Shown: piece by piece, positions 4,812 to 54,707 of the stretch | How the letters are laid out: each line of letters starts with the position of its first letter | Numbering within the stretch: the stretch's first letter is position 1 | Assembly (NCBI GenBank): GCA_036444275.1 | Contig: JAZGAD010000012.1 | Span: forward strand, 36,464-100,463 | Length of the DNA stretch: 64,000 nucleotides | Reading direction: 5' to 3' | DNA from: Candidatus Hydrothermarchaeales archaeon | Lineage (GTDB): Archaea; Hydrothermarchaeota; Hydrothermarchaeia; Hydrothermarchaeales; JAZGAD01 | Position numbers and translations under genes: made by a program | The notes under the pieces: generated by a model | Told to the model about the DNA's origin: nothing | Databases searched by the model: none | What the model saw: only the letters and a program-made list of their open reading frames with translations

Positions 4812-4981
4812 TTAGATGCTCCCTTGGTTATCCTTTTTACCCTGCCATTGTGCTGCGCGAAAGTCTAATCAGAGCTCTGCCTATCTCCACGTTTTTCAAG
4901 TATATTTGAAGATGCAAAAGGTATGTAAAATATAAATAGTCTTCGTAGTCTTCACAATTTAATAAAAAGGAGAGAGTCGAA

Positions 4982-19039: not shown

Positions 19040-19048
19040 GGTATCGCC

Positions 19049-20065
19049 TCAGATAGCTCGAAGGGTCGCCTTCAAGTGCCGAATGGATGGGATCTGGGTT
19101 CGCAGGTAGTCCTCGCAGATTTGAATCGGGTATATTTGCCTGTCCCACCTAGAGCAGTTGGCGCGTATGCACTTCTCAGCTATCAGCCAAGAAGAGAATT
19201 TGTCAGCCGAGATCGTTGGTCCAGTATATTCAACCCTCAAGAGCCCCATTTCAGGATAATGGGGCGCATGAATCCGCAGGTAGAAAGAATTCACCTTGTA
19301 TCTAGGGGTACCTTCCCTCAGTTGCATGGAGAAGACCATGCTCCGGTAGTACTCGGGCATGCTCCATACCATCTGTTGGATCTCGGGGTACGCCTCTTGG
19401 AGATATATTGTAGCATGCGTCTTTATCACGCCCACTACCTGTTCTGTCTTCATAGAGCCGAAGATATTGCCATCTTTAATGAGCACGTCCCCCCTAGGCT
19501 GTTCAGCGATGAACCTGTGCATCAGGTCATGCTCTATTTCCTGTCGCAGCGCCCTTGACTTTATCATAGCCTTGCTCCTGATTTCGTTGAGGTCCCAGCA
19601 TTTATCAGCTCCTGTATCAGCTAGACCCTCGATGTCTCCCCATGCCTCGTAGAGAAAGCTTGGTACTAAGATCTTGTTCCTGTAGAGAGCTTTTAGGGGT
19701 GCGAATTTATCGCAGTGCCTTCTATGCATTATCACTGCGCCTGAGAAATGGAGGAAAATAGGCACCTTGAATCCATTGAAGTCGTAGTGCTTCCAGAGCA
19801 CGGTCCTCTGCACGCCGTCCATGAAGTAACTGAGCTTGCTCTCACCGCGGTATCCATCTTGTACCCTGTGTACGCCTGGGATCTCTAGAGGCTGGACCTC
19901 TATATTCTCAGGTAGATGCAGGCTACTGGGGAATTCTTGCAACTCTAGCTCCATAAACACAGTAGGGCTAAGACTGTCAGAGGTGGCTCTTTCGAATTCC
20001 CTAGCGCTCTCAAACCAATCCATCCTTCTTTCCATGAACCATAACCCTTTTGCCGATGGTATCAT
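19049..20065 (-). CDS. NurA-like nuclease (RNase H fold)
   Basis: YFMDGVQRT, LIKDG, VGVIKTH, SFYLRI, GLLRVE and YPIQICEDYLR motifs; 9 nt upstream of herA. Confidence 0.75.
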   Translation of the reverse strand: MIPSAKGLWFMERRMDWFESAREFERATSDSLSPTVFMELELQEFPSSLHLPENIEVQPLEIPGVHRVQDGYRGESKLSYFMDGVQRTVLWKHYDFNGFKVPIFLHFSGAVIMHRRHCDKFAPLKALYRNKILVPSFLYEAWGDIEGLADTGADKCWDLNEIRSKAMIKSRALRQEIEHDLMHRFIAEQPRGDVLIKDGNIFGSMKTEQVVGVIKTHATIYLQEAYPEIQQMVWSMPEYYRSMVFSMQLREGTPRYKVNSFYLRIHAPHYPEMGLLRVEYTGPTISADKFSSWLIAEKCIRANCSRWDRQIYPIQICEDYLRTQIPSIRHLKATLRAI

Positions 20066-20540
20066 TAAACTTGTCCTAGGGCGGCTGAAAAGTGAAAAGT
20101 AATAAACATGAACGATAAAAATAGAAAAACATGGGCTTTTCGACCGAAATAAACGGAATCAATATCCAAAATAAACGAACCTTGAGGGGTAATAAGAGTG
20201 GTTGTAAAATTATATATTGCTCTAAATAGCATGTATACTAGACGTTGAGACTCATGAAAAATCCTTCAATCCAATATACTTCTCAAATCCGAAATAAGTT
20301 GCAAATAGAAATCCCTTATTCAAGGATTATCGGGGGAGTATAGAATGAGAAATATAATCCACTTGGGATCGATACAACCCCTGAGGAGGTTCAATGGCTG
20401 CTTGTTCAGCGGTGAGGATGTTCCGGAGCTGGATGTCTCCCTTAACACTGACAACTATCCTACCCAAGAGTTCTCTGTAGCCAGACCTATGTATCAAAAG
20501 GGACCCGTGCCGACCATAAAGTTAGTTGGGGAGTAGAAAC

Positions 20541-27815: not shown

Positions 27816-28239
27816 GATCGTTTACATCGCATCTCTCGTGGTCTTTGTCAGTCTCATCGCTTTCATAGGGTATTCACTGTTCCGTCAGGCGAACCCCGAG
27901 GATGGTCCTGGGACGGACGTGAGCTATGGTCTGATCGAGCGCAACGACTATTCTATCATCCAGTTCATTATCTCTAACAAGGAGGGTCGCGAGCTACATT
28001 ACATGATCCGTGCCTACATCGATGAAAATACGTTGTGGGATGTATCATTCCCCATTAAACCGGGCAGAACCTTTCAATACAGACGCCCCATCTACCGGGG
28101 GGATAGGGAAAAGGTGGTGAATATCTTGATCTACAGGATGGGTGAGGAGGGCGTGATCTATGAGACAGGAGAGTTTGCAGAGCGCATACACGAGCAAGAG
28201 CTCATAGAGAACGTTACGTATAGCATTAAAGCGAAGTGA
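27802..28239 (+). CDS. Hypothetical membrane-anchored protein
   Basis: N-terminal TM followed by a beta-rich domain; overlaps the stop of the giant gene. Confidence 0.65.
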   Translation: MNKLRIVYIASLVVFVSLIAFIGYSLFRQANPEDGPGTDVSYGLIERNDYSIIQFIISNKEGRELHYMIRAYIDENTLWDVSFPIKPGRTFQYRRPIYRGDREKVVNILIYRMGEEGVIYETGEFAERIHEQELIENVTYSIKAK

Positions 28240-35486: not shown

Positions 35487-35561
35487 TGGGGCCGCTGAGA
35501 TTCGAACTCAGGTCCATGGCTCCCAAAGCCACGAGGATAGACCATGCTACCCTACGGCCCC
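35487..35561 (-). tRNA. tRNA-Pro (TGG)
   Basis: GGGGCCG/CGGCCCC acceptor stem; GTGGC-TTTGGGA-GCCAT anticodon arm; TTCGAAT T-loop. Confidence 0.95.
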
Positions 35562-35932
35562 TCTTTCTCATCGTCTGTCGATACTCTTATTATTGTTTTA
35601 ACGTTTCCCCTGGGGTTGAAGTCTCCTAGGACCTCGAGGTAGCGTGGTTTAAGGAGTTTCTTCAGGTCTTCATATATACTGTTGGCCGCTGCCTCGTGCA
35701 TGAGATACTTGTCCCTATAGCTGTTCAGGTAGAGCTTCAAGGATTGTAGCTCCACTATATGCTTGTCGGGTATATAGTTTATTTTTATCGTGGCGAAGTC
35801 GGGGTAGCCCGAGCGCGGGCAGAGGCAGGTGAATTCAGGGAAAGCTATCTCTATATGATAGTCCCTTTCCGGGGTGGGGTTTTCCCATACTTCGAGCTTC
35901 GCCTCCTTTATCGCCTTTTCCCCATACTTCAT
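35552..35932 (-). CDS. queF: 7-cyano-7-deazaguanine reductase (preQ1 synthase), single-domain
   Basis: PEFTCLCP (catalytic Cys), PDFA, QueF motif [10 protein letters not shown] and FNPRG. Confidence 0.9.
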
Positions 35933-36125
35933 GGTTTATCATTGTTCACTGGCCTAAAAAGATTTTCTTCCCTGGCGTAAAACCAGAGGATTGCTACTGC
36001 CCCATCTTAGCAAGCATTACAACTACCGCGACTATTTCCCCGTCCACCAAGAAATACAGGGCGTACTCCACCAAGTCCCTACCTCCTGCGTAATTCTTAT
36101 TATGCTTTCGGATGTTTACTCAAAT

Positions 36126-37133
36126 ATGCTTGAGGACTTCGACTATCACCTACCAAAAGAGCGCATCGCTCAAAAACCCTTGACGAAGAGGAGTTCATCT
36201 AGGCTAATGGTTTTAACAGGGAGAGGAATAGAGCATAAAAAATTCTATGACTTACTGGATTATCTTGATGCCAGCGATGTCCTCGCGATAAATGACACGA
36301 AGGTAATCCCAGCCCGCCTTAGGGGTAGAAAAGCTAGTGGAGGTAAGGTCGAGGCATTGCTGCTCAAAAAGCATGATTCCTCGTGGGAGTGTCTAGTCAA
36401 AGGTAAGAATATACAAGAGGGCATGGAACTCGTGTTCAAAGAGATAAAAGCAAAGGTACTGCAAAAAAAAGGAGGGAGATACATACTCGAATTTCAAGAC
36501 AACCTAGAGGATATTCTGGAGAGTATCGGAGAGATCCCTACTCCACCCTATATCAAGGAGAAGCTTGTAGATGGAGAGCGTTATCAAACCATCTATGCTG
36601 AACGGCCTGGCTCTATAGCTGCACCAACAGCAGGCCTTCACTTTACCTCAAAACTCCTTAGGGAACTAGAACGGAGGGGGATTAACATAGCTAGGATAAC
36701 CCTGCATATTGGTTTTGGAACATTTGCACCTGTCAGGGTTCAAGAGCTCTCAAGGCATAGAATGGAGCCTGAATACTTTGAGGTGACTGAAGAAAGCGCG
36801 AGCACTATTAATCACGCCAGGGAAGAAGGCAAATTAATAATCGTCGGTACCTCCACACTAAAGGCCCTAGAAAGCGCCTCCGACAGGCAGGGTAATGTCC
36901 AGCCAACTACAGGCTGGTCTGACCTATTTATCCATCCACCATACGAATTTCGGGTTCCCTCAAGTGGCTTGCTAACCAACTTCCATCTTCCTAAGTCTAC
37001 GCTTCTTATGCTGGTATGCGCCTATGCCGGTAGAGAAAGGATTCTAGAAGCCTATGGCAAGGCCGTAGAAAAAGGATACAAGTTCTACAGCTTCGGAGAC
37101 GCCATGTTGATCATGAGGCATAGCCATGTATGA
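36126..37133 (+). CDS. queA: S-adenosylmethionine:tRNA ribosyltransferase-isomerase
   Basis: DFDYHLP..IAQ.P, NDTKVIPAR, PPYI, RYQTIYA, AAPTAGLHF, TNFHLPKSTL and FYSFGDAM motifs; start trimmed to 36126. Confidence 0.95.
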   Translation: MLEDFDYHLPKERIAQKPLTKRSSSRLMVLTGRGIEHKKFYDLLDYLDASDVLAINDTKVIPARLRGRKASGGKVEALLLKKHDSSWECLVKGKNIQEGMELVFKEIKAKVLQKKGGRYILEFQDNLEDILESIGEIPTPPYIKEKLVDGERYQTIYAERPGSIAAPTAGLHFTSKLLRELERRGINIARITLHIGFGTFAPVRVQELSRHRMEPEYFEVTEESASTINHAREEGKLIIVGTSTLKALESASDRQGNVQPTTGWSDLFIHPPYEFRVPSSGLLTNFHLPKSTLLMLVCAYAGRERILEAYGKAVEKGYKFYSFGDAMLIMRHSHV

Positions 37134-38217
37134 GCTGATCCACGAAGACGAAAAATCAGGGGCAAGAGCTGGAATAATCAATACTAAACATGGGGCGGTT
37201 GAGACACCAGCGTTTATGCCCGTGGCAACAAAGGGAAGCGTGAAGACCTTGAGCTCAGAGGACCTTGCAGATATAGGTGTGCAGGCACTGATAGCTAATG
37301 CCTTCCTTCTCTACCTCAAACCAGGTGTTGGTGTAGTGGAGAACTCAGGTGGGCTCCATGAATTCATGAACTGGCGGAAGGTAATATTCACGGATAGCGG
37401 CGGTTTTCAAATGCTGCGGAAGGATTTTCTGGTCAGGGTTAGCAAAAAGGGCATTACATTCAAGTCCCCCTTTGACAACAGCAGGCATCTGGTCACACCT
37501 GAGAAATGCATACAGGTACAGAATGCTTTAGGTTCAGATGTTGCTATGGTCCTTGACGATCTCCCGCCATATGGAAGCGAGTGTGAACGCACCGCTGAAT
37601 CGGTAAAACGAACTATAGACTGGGCGAAAAGATGCAAAGATGCGCATGGAAGTGAGGAGCAGGGGCTATTCGCAATAGTCCAGGGAGGTGTTTTCGAGGA
37701 TCTTAGACGAGAATGCGCTGGGAAATTAGTTGAGCTGGGTTTCGATGGCTATGGACTTGGGGGACTATCTATCGGGGAGCCGAAGGAAAAAATGTTTGAG
37801 ATTATAGAACGCACACCTTTACCAGTGGAGAAGGCAAGATACCTTATGGGTGTTGGATCGCCAATGGAATTGTTGGAGTCTATCTCCCGGGGCATGGATC
37901 TCTTTGATAGCGCATTTCCAACGAGAAATGCAAGACACAACATGGTATACACAAAGAAAGGTAGGTATGATCTAAGTAGAGGAAAGTATGCTGATGATTT
38001 CACCCCTCTCGAAGAAGATTGTGAGTGTCAAGCTTGCCGCAAGTATACACGGGGGTACATAAGCCATCTCCTCAAGGTGCGAGAGTTCCTGGGCATGCGT
38101 TTGGTGACCGTGCACAACCTCTATTTCCTTCAGAAGCTAATGAAGGATGCTAGGGAAGCGATAATGCGAGATGAATTTGTAGAATTTAAATCTGGACTTA
38201 TAGACAGAGTTGGATGA
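37126..38217 (+). CDS. tgt: Bacterial-type tRNA-guanine(34) transglycosylase
   Basis: TPAFMPVAT, TDSGGFQ, IVQGG, GGLSIGE, YLMGVG, PTRNAR and CxCxxC..H zinc site; 363 aa with no PUA domain. Confidence 0.92.
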   Translation: MYELIHEDEKSGARAGIINTKHGAVETPAFMPVATKGSVKTLSSEDLADIGVQALIANAFLLYLKPGVGVVENSGGLHEFMNWRKVIFTDSGGFQMLRKDFLVRVSKKGITFKSPFDNSRHLVTPEKCIQVQNALGSDVAMVLDDLPPYGSECERTAESVKRTIDWAKRCKDAHGSEEQGLFAIVQGGVFEDLRRECAGKLVELGFDGYGLGGLSIGEPKEKMFEIIERTPLPVEKARYLMGVGSPMELLESISRGMDLFDSAFPTRNARHNMVYTKKGRYDLSRGKYADDFTPLEEDCECQACRKYTRGYISHLLKVREFLGMRLVTVHNLYFLQKLMKDAREAIMRDEFVEFKSGLIDRVG

Positions 38218-41925: not shown

Positions 41926-42408
41926 CTACTCCACCTTTATTGTCTTCATAGCTACCTCCTCCGTAGGTAGCGTAATCTCCAGCACGCCGTTATTGTAAGT
42001 GGCTTTAGCCTTGGTGGAATCAACAGTAGCTGGTAGAGGAATCGTTCTATAGAATCTGGAGTATCTCCTCTCCCTCCGTATGTATCCCTGCTCTTCTCTA
42101 GCCTCTTCCGTCTCCTCTTTTCTGTCTGCAGATATCTCTATGCCGCCGTCGATGGCGTGTATCTTAATATCCTCCTTTTTTGTTCCAAGCAGCTCCACTA
42201 GGACTACAACTTCCTTCTGCTTTTTGTCCACTATAACATCCACTAGAGGCTCTTCGAAGTCGTATTCAGATTTTCTCCAGTGTTCTGGTGCGGTGATGTC
42301 AAAATCTTTGGACTCAATCTCGTCCTCAGGGAATATGGAATCCAAGTTCAATGCTCTAAAGATCCTTTGGAACGTTTCATTTATCTCATCAAAGTCGTCG
42401 ATGTTCAT
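41926..42408 (-). CDS. Small heat-shock protein (Hsp20)
   Basis: EPLVDV, RRERRY..FYR.I.LP and [13 protein letters not shown] motifs; start trimmed to 42408. Confidence 0.93.
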
Positions 42409-42442
42409 ACTACGGTCATCAATAGATAACAAGGTTAAATAT

Positions 42443-42466
42443 TTTAGTAACCTAAGGTAACTTTAA
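42443..42466. promoter_or_regulatory. Phr-like operator upstream of hsp20
   Basis: TTTAgtaACctaagGTaActttaa versus the recalled Phr consensus TTTAnnnACnnnnnGTnAnnAAAA; abuts the TATA box. Confidence 0.7.
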
Positions 42467-42594
42467 TGAAATTATTTATTTCCCCCCCGCTGTATTCCAA
42501 AAATAAATACCGCGGCAGAGTTCTTTGCAACCTGCTTTGCCCCTCCTAGACCCAAATAGATATCAGTGAGCATAGCTATCTTCATCGGAAATCC

Positions 42595-43365
42595 CTAATG
42601 CGTTAGATCCTCTCCCCCCATAAATACCTGCTGCGCGGAGTTATAAAGGTCTTCCATACCCCAGTTGGAATTAGAAGATATAGGGATTAAAGTTTTATAG
42701 GCGCCCAGGTTCTCCAGGATTCTAAGGGACTCGAAGTTCACTTCCCTCTCCAAGCCGGACTTTTCTTTTAAGAGTGCTTCTTCTAATTCTACGGCGTCCT
42801 TTCCCCAGGTTAGGATCCTATTAAGTTCCTCTTCCGTTAACATGTCTGTCTTAGAGAGGATATTAGTAAAGGGTAGTGGGAACCTAAATTGAACTGATGC
42901 ACCAAGCATAAGGAGAGAGGTGAAACCCAGAGAGCTCTTGGATAGGACGGGATCATATAGAAAGGCTATCATGGACCTATTAGCCCCCAATATCTGTACT
43001 GCGGTGCGGCTTGATTCTCGATAGGCGAAAAGCTCTATCTGACCAGGAGTATCAATCAACACATAATCTGTTTTAAAATCCTCTATGGCTTCCTTGATCT
43101 CTCGGGCCTTCAAGCCCAGCATGTCAGCGCACATCACTTGGGCGCCATTTGGGCCTAGACTATAGCGATCCATAACCTCAGATAAGCTGATCCAATCGCG
43201 GACATCTACATCCGCGGGATAGGGTATGCGTTCAGCACCTGGGTCAAGGTTCACTGTTATGGCGTCGTAACCCTGTTGCTGCATCCATAACTGGAATGCA
43301 TTGGTCAACGTGCTCTTTCCACTTCCAGCGGTACCCACGAAATATATGTTGGTTGTCTCGTCCAT
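42595..43365 (-). CDS. GPN-loop GTPase
   Basis: GTAGSGKST, NLDPG, LGPNGA and DTPGQIE motifs; real start is ATG at 43365. Confidence 0.93.
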   Translation of the reverse strand: MDETTNIYFVGTAGSGKSTLTNAFQLWMQQQGYDAITVNLDPGAERIPYPADVDVRDWISLSEVMDRYSLGPNGAQVMCADMLGLKAREIKEAIEDFKTDYVLIDTPGQIELFAYRESSRTAVQILGANRSMIAFLYDPVLSKSSLGFTSLLMLGASVQFRFPLPFTNILSKTDMLTEEELNRILTWGKDAVELEEALLKEKSGLEREVNFESLRILENLGAYKTLIPISSNSNWGMEDLYNSAQQVFMGGEDLTH

Positions 43366-43387
43366 AATAAAAAAAGGAAGGAGGGGA

Positions 43388-45058
43388 TTAAAACTCCCCG
43401 CCCATACCACCCATACCACCCATACCCCCGCCAGGCATTGGGGGTGCGCCTCCACCTCCACCTCCACCTCCACCTAGCCCGCTTGCAGCGATGACATCGT
43501 CTATTCTAAGAATCATTACTGCTACCTCGCTGGCACTATCTATGGCCTGTGTCTTCACCTTAAGTGGCTCCACGACGCCTTCTTTCAACATGTCCTTGAC
43601 CTTTCCCTGGTAGACATCCAAGCCGAAGCGATGGCCGTCCTTTTGATGCTTAGCTCTGAGCGCCACTATCATATCTATTGGATCAAGGCCAGCGTTCTCA
43701 GCTAATGCTCTAGGGATAACTTCCATGGAGTCAGCAAAGGCTTCGATGGCGAGCTGTTCTCTCCCACCGATGGTCTTGGCATACTCCCTGAGTCCCTTTG
43801 CTACCTCTACTTCTGGAGCTCCGCCTCCTGCTACCACGCGTTTGTCCCGCATTGCAGCTGGTACAACGCCAAGACAGTCCTCGATGCTGCGCTCCACTTC
43901 ATCTACGATGTGTTCACTTCCACCTCTGATGAGGATGCTCACACTCTTGGGGTCCTTGCAGTCCTTTACGAAGGTCATTTCATCATCGCCGATCTTGAGC
44001 TCCTCAACGACTCCAGCTGCTCCCAGGTCTTTAGCGCTTAGATCATCGATGTTACTCACTATGCTAGCACCAGTAGCCCTCGACAGCTTCTCCATGTCGC
44101 TCTTCTTCACTCTCCGTACTACGTAGACATCCGCTTTGGCAAGGTAGTGCTGGGCCAAATCGTCTAGGCCCTTCTGGCAGAACAGCACAGTAGCCCCGCT
44201 CTCCGTTATCTTATTCACCATCTTCTTGAGCATGCGCTCTTCTTCGTCTAGGAAGGCCTGCATCTGCTGTGGCTCCGTAATGCGTATCTCAGCATCAAAC
44301 TCAGTCTTCTCCACCTCTAAAGCAGTGTTCAGGAGAGCTATCTTGGCCTTCTCCACTTTCCTAGGCATTCCAGAGTGAACACGCTCCTTGTCTATCACCA
44401 CGCCCTGAATCAAGTCAGTATCTTCGATTCCGCCCCCAGTCTTTTTCTCCACCTGGATATCGTCGGTGTCTATTAAGACTTGGTCATCTTCCACTTCAGC
44501 AATTGCTTTCACAGCTTTGACCACGAGGTCAGCGAGATATTCCTTGGAGCTTTCAGCCCCTTTACCAGTCATGGCAGTCATAGCCACTTTCCTAAGCATG
44601 TCCTCATCATCAAGAGTGATCTCCACACTAGTTTCCTTCAGAATCTCTTTCGCTTTTTCTGCGGCGAGGCGATATCCACTGGCCACTACCGTTGAATGCA
44701 CTTCTTGGTCTAACAGGTCTTCTGCGCGCTTCAAAAGCTCGCCTGCTAGCACAACGGCAGTAGTAGTGCCGTCTCCTACCTCGTCGTCTTGGGTCTTCGC
44801 GACCTCTACCATCATCTTCGCCGCGGGATGCTCCACATCCATCTCCTTCAGGATCGCGACACCATCATTCGTGACGACTACATCACCAAGATTATCGACA
44901 AGCATCTTATCCATACCCCTAGGACCCAGCGTCGTCTTGACGCTCTCGGCTATTACTCTAGCCGCTAAAATATTCATTCTCTGGGCGTCCCTGCCCTTAG
45001 TGCGCTGAGTTTTCTCAGACAATATCAGAATGGGTTGCCCACCCATTTGCGCTGCCAT
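43388..45058 (-). CDS. ths: Thermosome (group II chaperonin) subunit
   Basis: [24 protein letters not shown] and LRIDD motifs; GGM tail. Confidence 0.97.
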
Positions 45059-45143
45059 AGTACACTCACCTCCAAATTCTAATGGTATATTTTAATTTTT
45101 TTATTTATAAAAGCACCTACACCTATGTAACATGTTAAATACT

Positions 45144-45167
45144 TTTAGTAACGAAAAGTAAGTAAAG
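45144..45167. promoter_or_regulatory. Phr-like operator in the ths/phr divergent promoter
   Basis: TTTAgtaACgaaaaGTaAgtAAAG is a near-perfect consensus match; a weaker copy lies at 45217-45240. Confidence 0.75.
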
Positions 45168-45267
45168 AAGAACTTTAAATTCTTTCGTCACTCTGCTTCA
45201 AAAGTACTACTAGGATTTTAGTAACAAAATGTATTTTTTTTACATCGTTAAATTTCAAGTCTAGGAC

Positions 45268-45789
45268 ATGAGGCTCGATGAGATTCTTGATATGCTTGGG
45301 AACGAGACTCGGAGGGAGATTCTTCAGCTTTTGTCTGAGAGGCCCTGTTATATCACCGAACTCTCTCAGGAACTGAACGTAGGCCAGAAGGCCGTCATAG
45401 AGCACCTAGAGCTCATGCGCCAGGCCGGTATGCTTAGAGCCGAGTCCAAGAAGATTGAGAAAGGTAGGCCCAGGAAGTACTACGGCATCACTCAAGCCCT
45501 TATACTGGAGATACGGATAGGGCAAGACTCCTTCGACATCGCTAGTGTAGTGCCAGGGATAGATGAAGAGATCTTGGAATCCATGCCCAACCTCAAGCTC
45601 GTAACACAGAGACTGGAGGATGCCACTAACTTAGAAGGCAAGCAGAAGATAATGGAGCTGGAACTGGCCTATGAAGAACTCCAAGACGAAGAGATGAAAC
45701 TTGTTGAGGCTAAAAAGATAATAGAGTATCTCTTGGGAGAGATAAAAAACGAGCTAAAGAAAGAGGCTTATACGTCAGCCTTCTTCTAA
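45268..45789 (+). CDS. phr: Heat-shock repressor Phr (ArsR-type wHTH)
   Basis: LGNETRREIL.LL..RP.Y..ELS.EL.VGQKAV.EHL and GRPRKYY closely follow Thermococcales Phr; heat-shock context. Confidence 0.85.
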   Translation: MRLDEILDMLGNETRREILQLLSERPCYITELSQELNVGQKAVIEHLELMRQAGMLRAESKKIEKGRPRKYYGITQALILEIRIGQDSFDIASVVPGIDEEILESMPNLKLVTQRLEDATNLEGKQKIMELELAYEELQDEEMKLVEAKKIIEYLLGEIKNELKKEAYTSAFF

Positions 45790-45917: not shown

Positions 45918-47138
45918 TTATCCCCATTTCTCAAGTGCCAATCTCAATTCATCGTGTGCCTCGGCATACTCTGTTAAGGGGATATCTTCTAAGGCCGCTT
46001 CGACCGCCTGTCTCAATGCTTTAGCTCCAGCAACCGTGCCCTTGGGATGTCCATGTACGCCACCCCCCGATTGGATCACAAAATCCCTGCCAAATATCTC
46101 CCGCAATTGCGGTACCAACCCCGGGTAAAGCCCTCCAGAAGCTACCGGCAAAACAGGCTTCATACCCGGCATATCGCCGCGTAAGGCATCGCAATTTTGA
46201 AGGACCTCCTCTTTACTTTCGAACATCTTCCCTACCCCGGTGCCGACATGCAGTTGATCTAGGCCTATAATCCTCACTAGTTTTGAAATAACCCTCATCG
46301 CTATACCGTGCTTTGGGTTCTTAGTGAAAGCAGCATGCCCAGCTCGATGAGCATGATACACAAGCTCGAAATCTTGATCACGAAGGGACTGTAAGGAGGA
46401 GAAACCGCATGTAAGAACGTCCACCATGGCATACTCGCCTCCATGGTCCACTACCTCCTGTGCTCTTTTCACCATCTCATCGCTCGTCGCTGTTATGTTT
46501 ACCATGTAGACCTTCCGCTCACCGGTCTTAGTTTCAGCTTTATCCCTTGCCTTGAGGGTTTCAATCAGCCTGCGTGAGAATGGATTAAAAGCCTGATCCC
46601 CAAGGTTTTCATCGTCCTTGACTACGTCACAGCCCCCCAGCCATGCCTCGTAAGCGACTCTAGCGTGGTCCTCTGTCTTAAGACCCAACTTGGGCTTGAT
46701 TATAGTGCCCACTAGGGGCCTATCCCTTACTCCAAGTAGGCCCCTAATGCCGCTAATGCCATATTTCGGTCCCTTGAAGCTCGCTAGGAGCTTTTCAGGC
46801 AGGGTGATATCCTCCAGCCTTAGGTTCTGTAAGGCTGCTAGCCCAAAGACGTTTCCAGCGACACTACTCAATAAGTTAGGAATACTTCCAGTCTCAAAGA
46901 GTTCAGCAGGATATGCAATCTTTACCTGGTTGCCCTGTATGCTGAAGACCTTGGCATGGAGTTCTTCTACGTAGGGCGTCGTCGTGGTTAGTTCAGTCCA
47001 TGTGCCTATCGAGCTTTCTGCTGCTACCCCACCAGCAGCCTCTTCTAAGCTTATACCCAAAGGCTCCAAATAGAAGTCGCATATAAGGTCTTCTTCCCCG
47101 GGCTCGTAGTCCAGTTCTACGTAGTCTATATATCTCAC
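45918..47138 (-). CDS. rbcL: RuBisCO large subunit, form III
   Basis: AAESSIGTWT, GTIIKPKLGL, GGCDVVKDDE, HAHRAGH, ASGGL and GGGVHGHP motifs. Confidence 0.95.
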   Translation of the reverse strand: MRYIDYVELDYEPGEEDLICDFYLEPLGISLEEAAGGVAAESSIGTWTELTTTTPYVEELHAKVFSIQGNQVKIAYPAELFETGSIPNLLSSVAGNVFGLAALQNLRLEDITLPEKLLASFKGPKYGISGIRGLLGVRDRPLVGTIIKPKLGLKTEDHARVAYEAWLGGCDVVKDDENLGDQAFNPFSRRLIETLKARDKAETKTGERKVYMVNITATSDEMVKRAQEVVDHGGEYAMVDVLTCGFSSLQSLRDQDFELVYHAHRAGHAAFTKNPKHGIAMRVISKLVRIIGLDQLHVGTGVGKMFESKEEVLQNCDALRGDMPGMKPVLPVASGGLYPGLVPQLREIFGRDFVIQSGGGVHGHPKGTVAGAKALRQAVEAALEDIPLTEYAEAHDELRLALEKWG

Positions 47139-47362
47139 AGATATTTATTGTCGTCAAAAGTATTTCAAGTTTTCAGTCAAAAATCAATGATTAAATGGTT
47201 ACTCTGCTGGTTGGCAATTGCCAGTCCATCCTGGCAACAAGGACCAATCGTGGCAATTAGGCTCTACAGTTGATGGTAGACGGAGTAATACACCCTATTA
47301 TTAGTAGTCATAACAGGCACAAAAATGGAAACTTGTTTATAACACTAATCACTACTTTTTAG

Positions 47363-48664
47363 ATGGTGGCAGAGGTGAGGCGTCATTGGGGAATTGTAAT
47401 ATTAATCACAATAATAGGGCTGATTATTGTAGGTGCTACAATAAAGACTTATTATCCTATTATTCGCCCTCCAGCAGAAGATGGAGCTATAATACTACAC
47501 TGTGAAACATTGAGAGTTGAGGGGATGTGTATTGATGTATCAATCAAGACAACTATCGATGGATGGCATAATACTCCAAGTAAATATGAATTTCCAGATT
47601 TAGTTAGAGTTAACGATTTTGTGGCTGTACAACGCATTGTTGTGGTATACAAAAAACCCATCTTCGGAAAACATCCTCCAAAATCACCTAAATTTAAGTA
47701 TACTTTGGAAATGTCTCCATTGGCAGGGCCCATAGAAGGAGTATACCCAGAGGATTATGCTAAAATTGTTATCGGAATACCCGAATTAAACCAAGGCGAT
47801 GTTTACGAAATTAATTACCTTGGGAATGATAAGTGGGAAACTACAATAAATGGAGAAATCTTTGACAAAGGTCCTCGAAGTATGCGGTTCCCAAGACTAT
47901 ACCGCCCAGGTGATTGGATTATCAGGGATTCTGCTAGACCTACCCCAGAATATAATCTAAATTGGACTGGATATAGTTCATTAATTAATGGAGATTGGTC
48001 AGAAAACGAACTATTCAGAGTCTATTCCCCCGATGAGATTGCGGATATAGAAAGTGCTATAATAGCTCAGACAATGGGTGTTATTACGCTTATTGTTATG
48101 GTTGTAATTGGTGTAGTCACCGTCATAATCGGAATTAGTACCATTGCCGTAGAATATGAGTTCTCACAAAAAATAGACAAAACAATGCGACGTCAAATAG
48201 AGGAAACAAGAAGGGTTTCAGACCATATTATAGAGTCAGGGAACAGACAGCTTCAGGATAAAAAATTATTCGAAAGAAACAAAAGGAAAAATATCCTAAG
48301 CAACCTAAGTCAGGAACTAGAGACTAATGTAAAAAATGCTAATGAAATAATTAGTAAAAAGGAAGATTATACTAAAAAAGGAAATTTGTTATTTCCTACT
48401 ACTGTTTTTTTAACAACGGCATTAGGAAGGGTAGTTTCAGATTATGTAATAGAAGAGGATTTTACTTTGAATGAGTTAGCTTTTCAGGTACTTTCATTAT
48501 TACTTACTGCAAATAGTACCTCAGAAGCAGTTAGAAATACAGGATTATCAATCCCAAATAATTTAGCCATTCTGATAAAGGAATTTGAAGATTCTTTAGT
48601 ACCCAAAACTATTGAATTTAAAGACATGGTAATACAATATAAAGATAAAATCGACAGTTTGTAG
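47363..48664 (+). CDS. Hypothetical protein with two TM segments
   Basis: 433-aa ORF; N-terminal TM, external beta-rich domain, second TM, then a helical domain. Confidence 0.7.
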   Translation: MVAEVRRHWGIVILITIIGLIIVGATIKTYYPIIRPPAEDGAIILHCETLRVEGMCIDVSIKTTIDGWHNTPSKYEFPDLVRVNDFVAVQRIVVVYKKPIFGKHPPKSPKFKYTLEMSPLAGPIEGVYPEDYAKIVIGIPELNQGDVYEINYLGNDKWETTINGEIFDKGPRSMRFPRLYRPGDWIIRDSARPTPEYNLNWTGYSSLINGDWSENELFRVYSPDEIADIESAIIAQTMGVITLIVMVVIGVVTVIIGISTIAVEYEFSQKIDKTMRRQIEETRRVSDHIIESGNRQLQDKKLFERNKRKNILSNLSQELETNVKNANEIISKKEDYTKKGNLLFPTTVFLTTALGRVVSDYVIEEDFTLNELAFQVLSLLLTANSTSEAVRNTGLSIPNNLAILIKEFEDSLVPKTIEFKDMVIQYKDKIDSL

Positions 48665-48705
48665 AAATCCTCTCATTTTAAATACAAAAACCCTTCAACC
48701 TATTT

Positions 48706-49200
48706 ATGGGAGTTTTAGTGACTGACTTTATTATAAGAAACCAGAAAGTAGGCAAATGGACTATGCCCACGGTTGTATTCAAATCTGAGGATAATTTCAT
48801 TGCTTTTGAAGTAAATGGAATCATTGGAAACTCCGTTCCAACTTCGAATTCGGGAAAACAGAAAACAGTCAAATGGAAACGTTTAGTTGCAAGGGCAGCA
48901 AAAGCAGCACGGGGTGAATTACTGCTTGATCCCTCATGGTTATACAGTATATCAGCAGGGTTTTCATTCAATTTACGATTGCACGGTGGGCCAAAATCAG
49001 ATGTAGAGAACTTTTTAAAACCTACGTTTGACGCGCTTGCAGCAGGCTTGTTTTGCACGGTCGAACAGGACACCGATAAAATTGTCAGATATGATTACGA
49101 TGATTCGAATTTTAAATTTTTATTTGTCTATAAACTCGATGATGCTCAAACAGCAGATGATGAAGGTGTGGGCATCACAATAAGTATTAGAAAGCTATGA
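48706..49200 (+). CDS. RusA-like Holliday-junction resolvase/endonuclease
   Basis: DVENFLKPTFDAL...DDS matches the RusA D.DN..K...DAL....DD pattern. Confidence 0.7.
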   Translation: MGVLVTDFIIRNQKVGKWTMPTVVFKSEDNFIAFEVNGIIGNSVPTSNSGKQKTVKWKRLVARAAKAARGELLLDPSWLYSISAGFSFNLRLHGGPKSDVENFLKPTFDALAAGLFCTVEQDTDKIVRYDYDDSNFKFLFVYKLDDAQTADDEGVGITISIRKL

Positions 49201-49210
49201 ACATATGGGA

Positions 49211-49396
49211 TTAAGTAAATGCTGTTGGATTTATCTTATTCAATCCCTCGAAAGTCCCGTTTTCTACTTTGGTCAATGCAACAAACAATAGAAGGCCTAT
49301 TATCGGATTCATTTTCCCTACCTCTTTATACAGACCTACTATTATCAAGAGCATTACACCGATATAAGTCGCAAAATAAATTTTTCTAATTTCCAT
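49211..49396 (-). CDS. Small hypothetical membrane protein
   Basis: 61 aa with two hydrophobic segments; weak support. Confidence 0.35.
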   Translation of the reverse strand: MEIRKIYFATYIGVMLLIIVGLYKEVGKMNPIIGLLLFVALTKVENGTFEGLNKINPTAFT

Positions 49397-49464
49397 TTCC
49401 GCTTGAATTTCATTTTCCCCCTCGTGATAAATAGACTAAATGACTCACAGTTTAAATATGTTTT

Positions 49465-49496
49465 TTTGCTCCTAAAGTCGGCACTTTAAGAGCAAA
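49465..49496. repeat. 14-bp-stem palindrome/hairpin
   Basis: TTTGCTCcTAAAGT-CGGC-ACTTTAaGAGCAAA in an island intergenic region. Confidence 0.6.
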
Positions 49497-49628
49497 GCCG
49501 CCCGAATGGGTTGTTTTATAAGGGATGAATGGTCTTAATAAGAACGAGAGAAGAAAATAATTACTCCAAAATCTCGGGAAGCTTATTAATTGTCATGAAG
49601 GGGATTTATTGGATTAGCATGAGGTCTT

Positions 49629-50189
49629 ATGACTCAAATAGAAGAATTTGACGAGGCCTTGGAAAGAAGTTGGAGGAATGGTGTAAAAAAAGATGTTCAA
49701 GCGGTTACTCGATATTACGGCTTCCACGAAGTAGACTTGGTCAATAGTTTATACTATCATTTGCGAAATAGATTAACAAAGTCTGGGATATGGAAAAACA
49801 TCCAAGTAGAAGCCTTTGGAATTTTCTTTGTTACAAAGAAAAGAAAGGAAGTTCAACCAGACATGCTAATCTATAAAACACATGGTTATAAACCATGGGT
49901 AGCATTCGAATTTAAACGGTTTGAAGGCACTCCTCAGAGAGCGAGAATAGATGCAGACATTGTGAAACTTGCTCACCTTAAAGAAAAGGAAAAAATCACT
50001 AGGGCATATATGGTTTGGGTCGCAAGTCGTAAGCCTGAGCGAAGACAAATTAAACAAAATACGCACTCAAAAAAGGTTGATAAGATTTTGAAGGAAGCAA
50101 AATATCTCAAGATATGTTATGGTTTTTTCGAGGAGGAAGACTGGGGAATACTAGATTTTCCTTTTAAAACATACCCATACCCTTTGTAA
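49629..50189 (+). CDS. PD-(D/E)xK-fold nuclease
   Basis: HEVDL...YYHLR helix, VE, QPDMLIY, AFEFKR and DIVKL motifs. Confidence 0.7.
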   Translation: MTQIEEFDEALERSWRNGVKKDVQAVTRYYGFHEVDLVNSLYYHLRNRLTKSGIWKNIQVEAFGIFFVTKKRKEVQPDMLIYKTHGYKPWVAFEFKRFEGTPQRARIDADIVKLAHLKEKEKITRAYMVWVASRKPERRQIKQNTHSKKVDKILKEAKYLKICYGFFEEEDWGILDFPFKTYPYPL

Positions 50190-50275
50190 TCCATATGGCA
50201 TTATATTGTCAATTAGATTATGCTAATTGCCAGCTTAACCTGGCAATTGCCAACCCCCACTCTAGCTAGTCACTG

Positions 50276-51289
50276 CTATTTCTGCATGTAAACAGTCCTG
50301 ATAGGGAAGGGTATCTCTATTCCCTCTTCCTCGAACATATCCTTTATCCTGCAGTTAATGTAGTCCAGTACTGTTATCTTTTCTTTTACATCATCTATCC
50401 AGACCACGAGCATCAGATTGAGCGAGGAATCTCCGAAGCTCCTGAAAGTAGCCGAGGACGGAGGCTTTTGAAGTACATGGGGTGCTTCATCAGCTATTTC
50501 GAGGAGAATCTTCTTTACCTTGTCTATATCGCTTTCATAGGCCACCCCAATAGGGACCGCGAGTTTCAGCTTTGTATCAGGGGCTGAGATGTTTGTTATC
50601 CTCGTATTGGCTATCCCTGAGTTCGGGATGGTTATCTGGGTGTGATCTATCACATTATAGAGGCGGGTGCTTCTCATGCCGATGTTCATTACCTCGCACA
50701 GCTCACCGCTTTCTAACAAGATGCGGTCCCCTATTGCGAAGGGTCGGTCCACCATTAGATAAAAACCAGAGAATACGTTGGACAGCGTATCTTGGGCTGC
50801 CATGGCGATAGCTATTCCTGCTATACCCATTCCAGCGATCATGGGGGTTATATCTATCCGCAGTATATCCAGTACCACTAGGATGCCGATTGCTATGATG
50901 GTTATCTTGGTGATCTTCTCCGCAACAGGTACGAGAATGTCGTAGATATCGGTGCTGGTTCTAGAAGCCAGGCTCTGACCGTACTCTCTTATTATCACAC
51001 TAGAGATGGAATATCCCACCCAAGTGACAATAACTATTCCGATGACCTTGAAAAAGCCCTCGATTCCGCTGAGCCAGGGAAACTGGACATAAGCCAAGGC
51101 GAAATAGATGCCTAGAAGAATCAAGAGGATATAGATAGGCACCTTTGTTATCCGCAGTATGAAATCATCAATCTTGGTGTCAGTCTTCTTGGCAAATTCC
51201 TCTACGTATCTCTCAACGAAGGTTAAGAAGAGCTTTGAAACTACAATAGCAGCTAGCACAATGGCAAGAGCTACCAGATAATTGGCCAT
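50276..51289 (-). CDS. mscS: Small-conductance mechanosensitive channel
   Basis: AGMGIAGIAIAMAAQDTLSN, DRPFAIGD, IPNS, FGDSSLN and GIEIPFP motifs. Confidence 0.94.
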   Translation of the reverse strand: MANYLVALAIVLAAIVVSKLFLTFVERYVEEFAKKTDTKIDDFILRITKVPIYILLILLGIYFALAYVQFPWLSGIEGFFKVIGIVIVTWVGYSISSVIIREYGQSLASRTSTDIYDILVPVAEKITKITIIAIGILVVLDILRIDITPMIAGMGIAGIAIAMAAQDTLSNVFSGFYLMVDRPFAIGDRILLESGELCEVMNIGMRSTRLYNVIDHTQITIPNSGIANTRITNISAPDTKLKLAVPIGVAYESDIDKVKKILLEIADEAPHVLQKPPSSATFRSFGDSSLNLMLVVWIDDVKEKITVLDYINCRIKDMFEEEGIEIPFPIRTVYMQK

Positions 51290-51448: not shown

Positions 51449-52729
51449 TTGCCTAAGTTTCTCAGCGCAAAAGAGCTTCCGAAGAAGCTGGTGGAGTTTA
51501 AGGATGCTTGGTATGCGGTAGCTCAGAAATGTGAGGGGCTGAGTGAGTATAAGTCAGGGTTAGACGAAGGCTTCAAAGACAACCTCTCAGAGATCAAAGA
51601 GGGGATTCATTCATGCAGGAATTTAATAAAGAAAATCACTCCCTCTATGAAGCGTATCATGCCCCAAATGAGGCGAGATATCGATGGATTTGTCGCAGGA
51701 TTAGCTGACTCCCTTGAGACATTTGAGAAAACAGTGGAGGGTGACCTAGAGGATGTTAGAGCACTCAAGAGGATTAACAAGCAGCTTATGGATCTAAATG
51801 GGACGCTTGAAGAAACGGAAAGGGAGTTCAGGAAGTCCGAGGGTATAACCTCTGAGATATGCACTAAATACTTCGAACGGAGAAGGGACTACTCCCAAAC
51901 TAGGGAGACGATAACCAACGCTACCAAGGAGAAACTGGAGGGTGTGAAGGAGAGGTTCTTTCAGAAGTTAGAGCCCATAGTGGAGGGATATGGAGTATCT
52001 ATCACCGGGGAAAGCATAGCTCTGGAGGGGCTCTTCAAGGGATTGCTAGAGAAATCTATCGATGTTGAGAGGATAACGCTCTTACCCACGGAGACATCCA
52101 AGGGGCTTCTGGATGTATTCACTGGTAAAAAGAAGATAAATAAAGAGGCAAGGGAAGAGGTTTTGAAATACATTTCTCAGGAGGTATTGGCCGACGCTAA
52201 CCCCATTAAGGCGCAGGAAGCCAAGGAGATAGCCCATCTTGATGTTGAATATGTAGACCTTAAAGCATTGGAACAAGAATGCAAGGAGGCAGAGAATCAG
52301 AGAGAGAAGTTATCCCAGCCTAGAGAATCCTTGATGTCAGAGATCTCCAAGCTGAAGAAGAGCGATGTCTTCATCCTCACCAACTATGATAACATCCTTA
52401 GTATTAGAGATAAATACCTTGCAAACTTTGAGGAGATGGACGCTAACGTAAAAAGGATTCTAGTTACCGCTGACGAGCTCCTAAAAGGCTATACGCAATT
52501 GGAGCCTGATAGGGAGAAGAGGGAAATCAAGCTTCAACTCAAGGACCTGAAGCAGAATCTAGAAGGCCTAGAGATGGAGAGGCTGAGACTGGAGGATGCC
52601 TTGAGAGGTGAGAAGGAGAAGAGTAGACGCGCTGAGGAGATACTTGGCAGATACAGGGAAAAGTTAAAGGGAATGAATTCTAAACTAAAAGGGTTGGAAG
52701 AAGAAATCGCCTCCCTGCTAAAGGAGTAA
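51449..52729 (+). CDS. Coiled-coil protein, paralogue A
   Basis: 426 aa, heptad-rich, no Walker motifs; N-terminus shared with the next gene; TTG start. Confidence 0.75.
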   Translation: MPKFLSAKELPKKLVEFKDAWYAVAQKCEGLSEYKSGLDEGFKDNLSEIKEGIHSCRNLIKKITPSMKRIMPQMRRDIDGFVAGLADSLETFEKTVEGDLEDVRALKRINKQLMDLNGTLEETEREFRKSEGITSEICTKYFERRRDYSQTRETITNATKEKLEGVKERFFQKLEPIVEGYGVSITGESIALEGLFKGLLEKSIDVERITLLPTETSKGLLDVFTGKKKINKEAREEVLKYISQEVLADANPIKAQEAKEIAHLDVEYVDLKALEQECKEAENQREKLSQPRESLMSEISKLKKSDVFILTNYDNILSIRDKYLANFEEMDANVKRILVTADELLKGYTQLEPDREKREIKLQLKDLKQNLEGLEMERLRLEDALRGEKEKSRRAEEILGRYREKLKGMNSKLKGLEEEIASLLKE

Positions 52730-52733
52730 AAGG

Positions 52734-54707
52734 ATGCCCGAAATCATAGCAGCAGAAGAGCTTCCGAAGAAGCTGGTGGAGTTTAAGGATGTTTGGTATG
52801 CGGTAGCTCAGAAGTGTGAGGGGCTGAGCGAGTATAAGTCAGGGTTAGACGAAGGCTTCAAGAATTCTCTCATAGAGCTCAAGGCGGATGGGAATGCCTT
52901 AGGGGAGCTGCTGGATGGGATTTCTATCGCTACCCAGCACCATATCCCCCGCACTAGAGACAAGGTGGAGGAACTTAGGGCGCCGATGATGACTATCCTA
53001 AGGGAGCTGTTGGGCGCTATTGATGCTGACATTAGAGATCTGACGAGGTACCAAGAGCTCTCACCTAAACTAGAGGAGATGATTAAGAACCTCCATGCTC
53101 TACAAGTGCGTCATGAGGATCTGAAGAAGCATGCTACAAGGACCTGTGACCAGTATTCTAAGACGAAAGAAGAACACGAGCAGAAGATAAACAATATTAA
53201 GGAAGCAACTGATAGGGCGCTCAGCAAAATCAAACAAAAATTCACATCTGAAATTAGCTCTATGTTCGAGGGCTACCAAATCGTCACTAAGGGGCGACGG
53301 GAGGAGGTTGACATTGGCTTGCTTCTGGAGAGGCTTATCCAGGACCCAAACTATTACCAGAAGGTGGATGTGGTACACAAGGGCTTATTCGGAAAGAAAA
53401 TATCTGATATAGAGACAAGACTCGTTCTACTCCAGTACAAAGCGGAAGAGGTCACTAAGGCTATAGTACCTATAATCGAGGAGGAAAAGAGGAGGGTCGA
53501 GAAGTTTGAGCCTGAGGAGAAGCGCATTCAGGAGCTAGAAATTCAATGCAGGGAATTGAGGGATGAAGAGAAGAGCATGTCAGCTAAGAGAGAGTCCCTG
53601 GAGAAAGAGGTAAACGAACTCAAAGGAGAAAATGAGGGAATCCGTGAGAGGTTTACTAACTATAACCAGCTCCTGAGTTTGGTGGATTCCTACGTGAGGA
53701 AGTTTGGAGAGACCACTTCCATCAGGAAGGAGATATCTGACCTAATAGAAGCCTCCATGGAGGCATATGAGCCGGTGGAGACGGATGTAGAAAAGAGGGA
53801 GCTCAAGGCACAGGTTAAATTCCTTAAGGATAAGACGATCATACTGATAAAGGAAAAAGGAGAACTCCAAAAAACGTTGAAGGGCGTAAAGAAAGAGCTG
53901 GGGGAGCGCAAAGAAAAAGTCGAGGATTTATCCAATAATCTGGAGAAGCGTAAGTCCGACGTGGCTAGATTAAAGGGTGAGGTATCCAATCTAAAAGATG
54001 TGAAGGGGGAACTAGAGGAGAATCTAAAAGGGATAGAGCAGGAGCTCGATGAGAAGGTGGAGCACATAGAGACTCTGGAAGGTCGAGTTGCAACCCTTGA
54101 GGAGAGTGAGGAGCATCTGCAGAGCAACCTTGAGGAAACAGAAGAGAGACTCAAGGGGAAGACCTCAGAGTTATTAACTGCTCAAGAGGAATTGGATGAT
54201 CGGGGTAAGCGATTAGTAGACTTAGGGGATAACTATGATGCCCTAAAAACACGCTACAAGGAGGTGGGTTCCGAGCTGGCTGTTATCAAGGCAAAAGCAG
54301 ACGGTCTTGAGAAAAAACTCAGACAGACCATGAAGGAGAAAGACATTCTGGATAGGAATTTGGAGGGTAGGGATAGGTCCCTGAAAACGGCTTCGAGGGA
54401 GTTAGAGCGAGCAGCTCGGAAATACGAGAATTCCCAGAAGGAGATTAGCAGGTACAAGGAAAAAGTGGCTGAGGAGAAGAAGCGATATTCAGAACTAAAG
54501 AGCAGACATGAGAAGATGGGCTCTGAATTGAGGGTGGTGAAAGCTGAAGTAGCAAAGTTGGGGCGGGAAATAGCATCTCGCATGAAGCTTAGACCGGTCG
54601 TGGAGAAAAAGGGAAGAAAAAGAAAAGAGAGAGGAAAAGGAAAGGAGACTGGGGAGGAAGAAGTGATAGTAGAGGAGAAGATCAGCGCCTTGCGGAAAAA
54701 AATGTAA
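52734..54707 (+). CDS. Long coiled-coil protein, paralogue B
   Basis: 657 aa; co-linear with paralogue A plus an extended coiled-coil tail. Confidence 0.8.
   Translation: MPEIIAAEELPKKLVEFKDVWYAVAQKCEGLSEYKSGLDEGFKNSLIELKADGNALGELLDGISIATQHHIPRTRDKVEELRAPMMTILRELLGAIDADIRDLTRYQELSPKLEEMIKNLHALQVRHEDLKKHATRTCDQYSKTKEEHEQKINNIKEATDRALSKIKQKFTSEISSMFEGYQIVTKGRREEVDIGLLLERLIQDPNYYQKVDVVHKGLFGKKISDIETRLVLLQYKAEEVTKAIVPIIEEEKRRVEKFEPEEKRIQELEIQCRELRDEEKSMSAKRESLEKEVNELKGENEGIRERFTNYNQLLSLVDSYVRKFGETTSIRKEISDLIEASMEAYEPVETDVEKRELKAQVKFLKDKTIILIKEKGELQKTLKGVKKELGERKEKVEDLSNNLEKRKSDVARLKGEVSNLKDVKGELEENLKGIEQELDEKVEHIETLEGRVATLEESEEHLQSNLEETEERLKGKTSELLTAQEELDDRGKRLVDLGDNYDALKTRYKEVGSELAVIKAKADGLEKKLRQTMKEKDILDRNLEGRDRSLKTASRELERAARKYENSQKEISRYKEKVAEEKKRYSELKSRHEKMGSELRVVKAEVAKLGREIASRMKLRPVVEKKGRKRKERGKGKETGEEEVIVEEKISALRKKM

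Follow-up and report, generated by a model that had tools for sequence, protein, structure and literature searches.

The 64,000-nucleotide window analysed here (positions 36,464 to 100,463 of contig JAZGAD010000012.1, assembly GCA_036444275.1, from Candidatus Hydrothermarchaeales archaeon) carries an island of about 3 kb between a gene for a mechanosensitive channel (mscS) and a gene for the RuBisCO large subunit (rbcL). The island is a foreign, well-bounded cassette with palindrome-rich inverted ends and two nuclease genes. The explanation preferred for it, held at somewhat less than an even chance, is that of a non-autonomous element resembling the mobile insertion cassettes (MICs) of bacteria, moved by an enzyme supplied in trans and flanked by ACTCT as a 5-bp target duplication. 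The island is known as a single copy, and as such it is neither demonstrably mobile nor demonstrably a member of a new class.

Terminal repeats

The two ends of the island form an inverted repeat, which a repeat search returned as the longest of the region (29 nt, 83% complementary, arms 2989 nt apart). Its components and the associated palindromes are as follows.

47209-47237, left terminal inverted repeat: outer 16 nt, unmatched 6-nt spacer, inner 7 nt
50227-50255, right terminal inverted repeat: inner 7 nt, spacer at 50234-50239, outer 16 nt
47212-47223, left copy of the perfect 12-bp palindrome TGGCAATTGCCA, a putative attachment (att) core or long duplication under one of the alternatives below
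50241-50252, right copy of the same palindrome
47251-47260, fourth TGGCAA half-site (TGGCAATTAG), at the left end only, with no position-symmetric partner on the right
50210-50229, second perfect 7-N6-7 palindrome (CAATTAG-attatg-CTAATTG), at the right end only, sharing 3 nt with the inner arm

The left end reads GGTTGGCAATTGCCAG (47209-47224), tccatc (47225-47230) and CTGGCAA (47231-47237), and the right end TTGCCAG (50227-50233), cttaac (50234-50239) and CTGGCAATTGCCAACC (50240-50255), in agreement with the letters and coordinates of an earlier sequence-only reading of this DNA. That reading had also described arms that match throughout in inverted orientation around differing spacers, and this is confirmed: 23 of 23 arm bases (16 + 7) are paired across the two ends, while five of the six spacer positions are mismatched. 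All five mismatches of the 29-nt repeat fall inside the spacer, which under random scatter has a probability of 5e-5. Perfect arms combined with a free spacer are what would be expected if a protein touched the half-sites and left the spacer between them untouched.

The repeat stands out from its surroundings in several ways. When the 300-nt end regions are compared in inverted orientation, the top-scoring 29-mer agrees at 24 of 29 positions, and 40 shuffles give no more than 21. TTGCCAG-N6-CTGGCAA occurs without mismatch only at the island's two ends in the whole window, and the same 20-nt pattern with up to two mismatches gives three matches in 64 kb where 0.20 are expected, a number reached by none of 100 shuffles. 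TGGCAA/TTGCCA half-sites start at 47212 (plus), 47218 (minus) and 47232 (plus) at the left end, and at 50227 (minus), 50241 (plus) and 50247 (minus) at the right end; nowhere else in the window do at least three such hexamers lie within 60 bp. The sequence-only reading had paired the additional left half-site with a mirror copy at 50223-50232, which does not hold, as the latter overlaps the inner arm at 50227-50233 (it consists of that arm and four further bases) and is neither independent nor placed as a mirror image.

The palindrome TGGCAATTGCCA, found without mismatch in the window only at 47212 and 50241, lies inside the outer arms and makes the island ends a direct repeat and an inverted repeat at once. 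Because the inverted repeat contains the palindrome, the 12-bp direct repeat adds no independent evidence. The outer nine bases of the left arm and the outer nine of the right arm would together make a perfect 18-bp palindrome. Perfect 7-N6-7 palindromes number five in the window, three of them at the island ends. When folded as single-stranded DNA, the right end is far more stable than its shuffles (z -4.2; none of 200 equal to it), while the left end folds no better than shuffled sequence (z -0.81).

Composition and flanking genes

The ends of the island coincide with a switch to AT-rich DNA, as the sequence-only reading had noted. The guanine-plus-cytosine (GC) content is 0.359 over the 2989 bp between the arms, compared with 0.477 and 0.452 in the 3-kb flanks and 0.468 in the window. 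In 600-nt windows the island is the only long stretch below 0.40, with one other, short, at 4801-5500. All three large open reading frames (ORFs) of the island run in the plus direction, counter to the two flanking genes, and have a GC content of 0.35-0.39 against 0.46-0.50 for those genes. Since the sites coincide with the compositional boundaries, they are taken as the ends of inserted DNA. Both flanking genes are intact.

45918-47138, minus strand, rbcL, form III RuBisCO large subunit (Pfam RuBisCO_large E 2.4e-83, RuBisCO_large_N E 1.3e-40)
50276-51289, minus strand, mscS, MscS-type mechanosensitive channel (Pfam MS_channel_1st, 2nd and 3rd)

The rbcL product covers positions 1-119 of 120 of the N-domain profile, and the gene has a GC content of 0.503; its start codon lies 70 bp from the left repeat. 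In the mscS product, positions 3-88 of 88 of the C-terminal domain profile are covered, and the first base of the stop codon lies 20 bp from the right repeat. The left site therefore falls in the divergent region between rbcL and the first gene of the island, while the right site is found between two convergent stop codons. The nearest relatives of the MscS protein are 73% and 69% identical to it, and named relatives at 53-59% identity come from metagenome-assembled genomes (MAGs) labelled Syntropharchaeia, Halobacteriota, Methanosarcinales and Methanocellales. All close protein relatives are from metagenomes or MAGs.

Cargo genes

The cassette encodes near-orphan proteins, among them two nucleases. 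The features between the repeats are listed below.

47363-48664, plus strand, ORF1, 433 aa, no family, GC 0.351
48706-49200, plus strand, ORF2, 164 aa, probable RusA-like Holliday-junction resolvase
49211-49396, minus strand, putative hydrophobic ORF of 61 aa, no family
49465-49496, strong hairpin or palindrome within the non-coding 430 bp that separate ORF2 from ORF3
49629-50189, plus strand, ORF3, 186 aa, predicted PD-(D/E)XK (restriction-endonuclease-fold) nuclease

By eye, ORF1 is hydrophobic around residues 9-27 and 236-270; its C-terminal part is helical. Its matches in Pfam, PADLOC, PHROG and NCBIfam are all below threshold, and a word-based search of 5.8 billion clusters recovered only the protein itself among 6167 candidates.

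ORF2 is probably a junction resolvase of the RusA type. Its match to Pfam RusA (PF05866) has an E-value of 0.056 and 14.5 bits, below the 22.8-bit cut-off, and PHROG families 34 and 140, both annotated as 'RusA-like', are matched at E 0.014. In Atlas, the RusA set takes 23 of the 30 feature matches (top score 0.94), and the Atlas structure search, which uses Atlas's own model, aligns the protein to a RusA cluster with a template-modelling (TM) score of 0.68. Comparison by BLASTP with RusA of E. coli K-12 (E 0.059) covers the block D-x-(D/E)-N-x-x-K-x-x-FDAL, and the LDDAQ motif is common to both proteins. Residues D99, E101, K105 and D145/D146 align with D70, D72, K76 and D91 of the K-12 protein, which presumably are its catalytic acidic residues and lysine, the second aspartate being replaced by glutamate. 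A single-sequence AlphaFold2 (AF2) model was too poor to be used for a fold search (predicted local distance difference test score, pLDDT, of 50).

ORF3 is, as judged from its alignment and predicted structure, a PD-(D/E)XK nuclease of a very rare family with the D...ExK motif intact. HMMER found seven other proteins at E of 1e-3 or below in 1.84 billion representatives, and the word-based search of 5.8 billion clusters again returned only the query. In the alignment of ORF3 with six of these relatives, which leaves out the protein P0129 (2163 aa, E 7.1e-4, six short matched stretches), D78, E94, K96, D110 and K113 are invariant in all seven sequences. The AF2 model built on the alignment reaches a pLDDT of 81.4. 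Its Foldseek matches are all weak (best E 1.2e-3, TMq at most 0.41) and are mostly restriction enzymes, YaeQ, SfsA, Hjc resolvases and viral PD-(D/E)XK nucleases, to which the Atlas leads are similar. Pfam HSDR_N is touched by three of the seven family members (best E 0.0013). Sequence searches of the PDB with ORF2 and ORF3 gave nothing meaningful.

A MunI-like (CAATTG-cutting) enzyme was considered for ORF3 and set aside. The Atlas lead in that direction scores 0.78, in a range often reached by chance. CAATTG forms the middle of each 12-bp palindrome, but it occurs 13 times in the window, with no informative sign of avoidance.

The hairpin at 49465-49496, flanked by divergent ORFs, has 13 pairs with one internal mismatch and a DNA folding energy of -9.2 kcal/mol (z -3.43; one of 200 shuffles equal to it). 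It matches no Rfam family, and could be an operator or a small RNA.

Searches for a recombinase and for related DNA

No transposase, integrase or recombinase family was recognised in the three large ORFs or the 61-aa ORF with Pfam, PHROGs, PADLOC and NCBIfam, and Pfam likewise detected no transposase or integrase in the 14 small island ORFs of at least 30 aa, out of 25 listed. The same Pfam searches of large and small ORFs revealed no DNA-binding protein encoded in the cassette. In the window as a whole, 42 ORFs were scanned, chosen as the longest non-overlapping among 76 of at least 110 aa, and none has a tyrosine recombinase, transposase or integrase as its own family. The absence of a transposase or integrase inside, claimed by the sequence-only reading, is in line with these searches; its term 'recombinase-less' has to be qualified, given the RusA-like resolvase and the PD-(D/E)XK nuclease among the cargo. 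A split integrase of the SSV type was also sought and rejected, the longest frame over the hypothetical circle junction being 44 codons.

Neither a tRNA nor an Rfam family was detected at or near the island, apart from one sub-threshold miRNA match (E 0.63), which was dismissed. A scan for sigma-70 promoters and terminators, with a model unsuited to archaea, gave no more sites than in shuffles. Against plasmids and phages, the island DNA produced no blastn match and ORF1, ORF2 and ORF3 no tblastn match. Literature matches to TGGCAATTGCCA are unrelated and apparently primers or markers.

The ACTCT candidate duplication

An identical 5-mer lies exactly 3 bp beyond each arm.

47201-47205, left copy of ACTCT, candidate target-site duplication, 3 bp outside the arm
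50259-50263, right copy of ACTCT, candidate target-site duplication, 3 bp outside the arm

Among 200,000 random pairs of pseudo-ends drawn from the window, a direct repeat of at least 5 bp at any symmetric offset from 0 to 6 appears with a frequency of 0.0088. No duplication is flush with the boundary of the 29-nt repeat, and to this extent the sequence-only reading, which had seen none, was correct; what it had passed over is the pair set 3 bp further out. If ACTCT is the duplication, the ends become 32 nt long, with 3-nt tips that pair at one of three positions and an overall pairing of 25/32.

The end motif in other genomes

The query TGGCAATTGCCA-N8-TGGCAA, with 18 specified bases, was scanned against 185,579 species genomes (596 Gb), a set that does not include the genome of the window. 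It found 39 loci, each on a different contig and all bacterial, where about 17 would be expected by chance; there were no archaeal and no paired matches in this set. A mechanical ORF of at least 150 codons contains the match in 23 of the 39 loci, and the other 16 are outside any ORF of at least 150 aa. The G/C flanks of the full arm are also present in one locus (L010), as chance predicts.

The ORFs adjoining the intergenic matches (n = 18) comprise four for MazE/AbrB-type antitoxins, one AlpA-like, one HTH_17, one DUF433 and one HNH, together with ten without a family. In four unrelated bacterial MAGs (L013, L021, L026 and L029) the motif, at about 2001-2040 or 893-918 of the locus, stands directly upstream of the antitoxin gene, over TATAAT-like boxes.

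L013, 2042-2311, antitoxin ORF
L021, 2042-2305, antitoxin ORF
L026, 2044-2337, antitoxin ORF
L029, 539-790, antitoxin ORF

The motif is placed likewise in L019 (AlpA-like), L024 (HTH_17) and L010 (DUF433). The arrays upstream of antitoxin genes look like a common operator design of one toxin-antitoxin family, and the bacterial hexamer array more generally looks like an operator of small DNA-binding proteins, which is a caution for the archaeal case rather than its refutation. The scan, which the sequence-only reading had put forward as a check, is neutral in its outcome: no archaeal copy, paired or single, and bacterial singletons, several of them operator-like.

A separate arrangement is seen in three Burkholderiales MAGs (L024, L031 and L033), where TGGCAATTGCCA-N8-TGGCAATTGCCA occurs in tandem with a 20-bp period. 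The central 8-mers of L024 and L033 are mutual reverse complements in their stored orientation. This suggests a conserved site in Burkholderiales.

A cassette mobilised in trans

A non-autonomous cassette acted on in trans, as proposed by the sequence-only reading, is the most economical account of a discrete, foreign-looking segment with symmetric ends and no conventional recombinase gene. As no DNA-joining enzyme is encoded inside, the cassette would be non-autonomous and its enzyme would be supplied from elsewhere. According to this mechanism, a horizontally acquired cassette of ~3.05 kb (about 47206-50258) would have inserted in the short mscS-rbcL spacer. Its ends would be the terminal inverted repeats of 29 nt (32 nt if the three weakly paired bases at each tip are included), composed of TGGCAA half-sites whose orientation alternates. 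These half-sites would be recognised by an enzyme encoded outside the cassette, a dimer or multimer touching the arms and not the 6-nt spacer. An autonomous relative elsewhere would supply this enzyme, either a transposase or some other recombinase that binds the ends. Insertion would have duplicated 5 bp of the target (ACTCT). The putative passengers, a membrane protein, the RusA-like resolvase and the PD-(D/E)XK nuclease, are probably virus- or plasmid-derived genes for DNA processing or conflict.

MICs of bacteria have inverted-repeat ends and passenger genes, and carry no transposase. The island shares with them, and with non-autonomous inverted-repeat transposons, the terminal inverted repeats, the passengers, the missing transposase, a short candidate duplication and an intergenic insertion. 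It differs from MICs in being a single copy and in having no known cognate insertion sequence that shares its ends. It differs further in the internal palindromes with three alternating half-sites in its ends, in its poorly matched tips and in its archaeal host.

Several points weigh against mobilisation in trans. Inverted repeats with internal palindromes are unusual for the ends of insertion sequences. The ACTCT pair was noticed post hoc and presupposes 3-nt tips in which just one position of three is paired. In most DDE transposons, conservation is highest at the very tips. A single copy is known, with no cognate autonomous element or second insertion among the 185,579 species genomes, from which its own genome is absent. 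Finally, with the nearest MscS relatives only 73% and 69% identical, the intergenic DNA is too distant for comparison with an empty site.

Cassettes that carry passengers and have no transposase are already known in bacteria. Composite transposons with passengers are stated to be undetected in archaea in the pertinent section of PMC6563490. If the ends are mobility sites, the island would extend vehicles of this type to an uncultured lineage allied to methane- and alkane-cycling archaea, and would point to an unknown end-binding enzyme for TGGCAA half-sites. If the ends are only regulatory, it would be an ordinary small genomic island. The cargo, for its part, contributes a rare PD-(D/E)XK family, with its seven relatives in 1.84 billion representatives, and an archaeal RusA-like resolvase.

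Alternative explanations

Unlikely, and still the best of the alternatives, is that a small circular element integrated site-specifically, with a palindrome as its att core. Here the 12-bp TGGCAATTGCCA would be the duplicated core (attL and attR), the outer three bases on each side would be palindromic chromosomal target, the inner G/C with the 6 nt and the 7-nt arm would belong to the attP of the element, and the integrase would act in trans or have been lost. A perfect 12-bp direct repeat at both borders, and nowhere else in the window without mismatch, is consistent with such an event. The central CAATTG would provide an identical 6-bp overlap, the unequal 'spacers' would be unrelated attP arms, no target duplication would be needed, and the outer bases of the two arms, nine from each, would restore a perfect 18-bp palindrome. 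It also fits the Thaumarchaeota as described in sections of PMC6563490, where att sites have a median length of 17 bp and a minimum of 8 bp, and where 15 of 68 integrations are intergenic. The archaeal cryptic integrated elements treated in the same sections resemble the island in their small size (range from 2.6 kb), intergenic target, short direct repeat (12 bp here), orphan gene content and low GC. However, these elements are defined by an integrase gene, by definition their conserved gene in that source (PMC6563490), and the cassette has none, whole or split (44 codons being the longest junction frame). The island's repeat is, moreover, a palindrome embedded in a longer inverted repeat, of which the direct repeat is not independent. 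There is no tRNA target, and ACTCT would need to be a chance event (0.9%).

Somewhat less probable again is that the repeats are sites for a regulator or a structural protein, either operators or loop anchors that silence the island, which itself would have come by another route. The bacterial singletons, with 16 of 39 outside ORFs of at least 150 aa and four directly upstream of MazE/AbrB-type antitoxin genes, point in this direction, as does the position of the left site in the divergent region between rbcL and ORF1. The right site, in contrast, has a stop codon on either side, the two genes being convergent, and a promoter operator would serve no evident purpose there. Moreover, the cassette encodes no DNA-binding protein detectable by Pfam, the 64 kb hold no further copy of the site, and both the coincidence with the compositional boundaries and ACTCT are left unexplained. 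The bacterial matches themselves come from unrelated organisms, and 23 of the 39 are inside long ORFs, as chance would give.

Distinctly improbable is a segment that is inverted or excised by a tyrosine recombinase at two arm-6 bp-arm sites, for which the sequence-only reading had invoked dif/pdif and Tn916 as models; no specific support for it emerged. Parts of PMC8371274 and PMC2958812 describe dif as two 11-nt arms around a 6-nt spacer (a 28-bp site), with cleavage at the spacer edges. The ends of the island likewise have two arms round a 6-nt spacer, with an inner 7 nt that is perfectly palindromic and outer arm bases that vary, in keeping with passages of PMC8371274 and PMC6449649. The dif/pdif modules of Acinetobacter plasmids, in the account given in those passages of PMC6449649, are also recombinase-less and flanked by inversely oriented arm-6 bp-arm sites, their inner arm bases palindromic and conserved and their central 6 bp variable. 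In the island, by contrast, the arms pair over 7 nt (7/11 at the left, 9/11 at the right) and do not form two defined 11-nt Xer-binding sites. The island is also chromosomal, in an archaeon, with no recurrence elsewhere and no link to a Xer recombinase. The recurrence in other contexts that defines such modules was not seen in the protein word search, the species genomes, the plasmids or the phages, and the 42 window ORFs include no Xer-like or other tyrosine recombinase. In inverted register the spacers differ at five of six positions, and since tyrosine recombinases need matching overlap regions, this speaks against an exchange between the two sites. Tn916 encodes Int and Xis, and its coupling sequences separate the end of the element from the target. 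The island resembles it in having unequal 6-bp sequences at both ends, and differs in that its 6-mers are inside the repeat, between conserved arms, and in that it has no integrase.

The probability is smaller still for a self-mobilising element of a new kind, in which the cassette's own RusA-like resolvase and PD-(D/E)XK nuclease would cut cruciforms at the palindromic ends and target, and host repair would complete the insertion. It would be the first archaeal member seen of such a kind, working without a DDE, tyrosine or serine enzyme, and we know of no precedent for a cruciform-cutting element of this sort. In its favour, the ends and the hypothetical target are rich in perfect palindromes, three of the window's five 7-N6-7 palindromes being at the ends, folding of the right end far exceeds that of its shuffles, the probable resolvase has acidic residues aligned to those of E. 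coli RusA, and the predicted nuclease keeps D...ExK. However, the cassette encodes no strand-joining activity, its left end folds no better than shuffles and it is a single copy; RusA and PD-(D/E)XK genes are, besides, common passengers of viruses and defence islands.

Least probable of all, with a chance close to negligible, is that the island is a fortuitous resemblance or an assembly chimera. One copy is known, and it is from an uncultured source whose close protein relatives come from metagenomes and MAGs, but the repeat statistics speak against chance, ORF3 and MscS are each recorded on two contigs, and a shared palindrome of 12-16 nt is shorter than typical assembly k-mers.

Other features of the window

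The window also carries genes for MtrH, RACo, thermosome and Cdc48. Taken with the MscS relatives given above, these genes place it in an uncultured lineage near the groups to which the MAGs are assigned, and one that lacks a close sequenced relative. Downstream of mscS, two adjacent ORFs of 426 and 657 aa (51449-54707) have normal GC and only coiled-coil, SMC-like and Rad50-like matches of low specificity. A further block of ORFs at 17447-28239 has no Pfam family at E of 1e-5 or below, comprising proteins of 530 aa, 338 aa, 2429 aa (20526-27815) and 145 aa, with a normal GC of 0.47-0.50.

A heat-shock neighbourhood is located at 41926-45789, where genes for Hsp20, a GPN-type ATP_bind_1 protein, the thermosome and an ArsR-type regulator convergent with rbcL are found, with Cdc48 just upstream. 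The N-terminus of the ArsR-type regulator matches the NCBIfam model of the Phr heat-shock regulator with an E-value of 4.2e-30, under the cut-off of that model.

Genes for a QueF-like protein, a QueA-type protein (Queuosine_synth, E 2.3e-123) and TGT are grouped at 35552-38217 of this archaeal window. QueA is part of the bacterial queuosine pathway, and the group may be a transferred or unusual tRNA-modification cluster.

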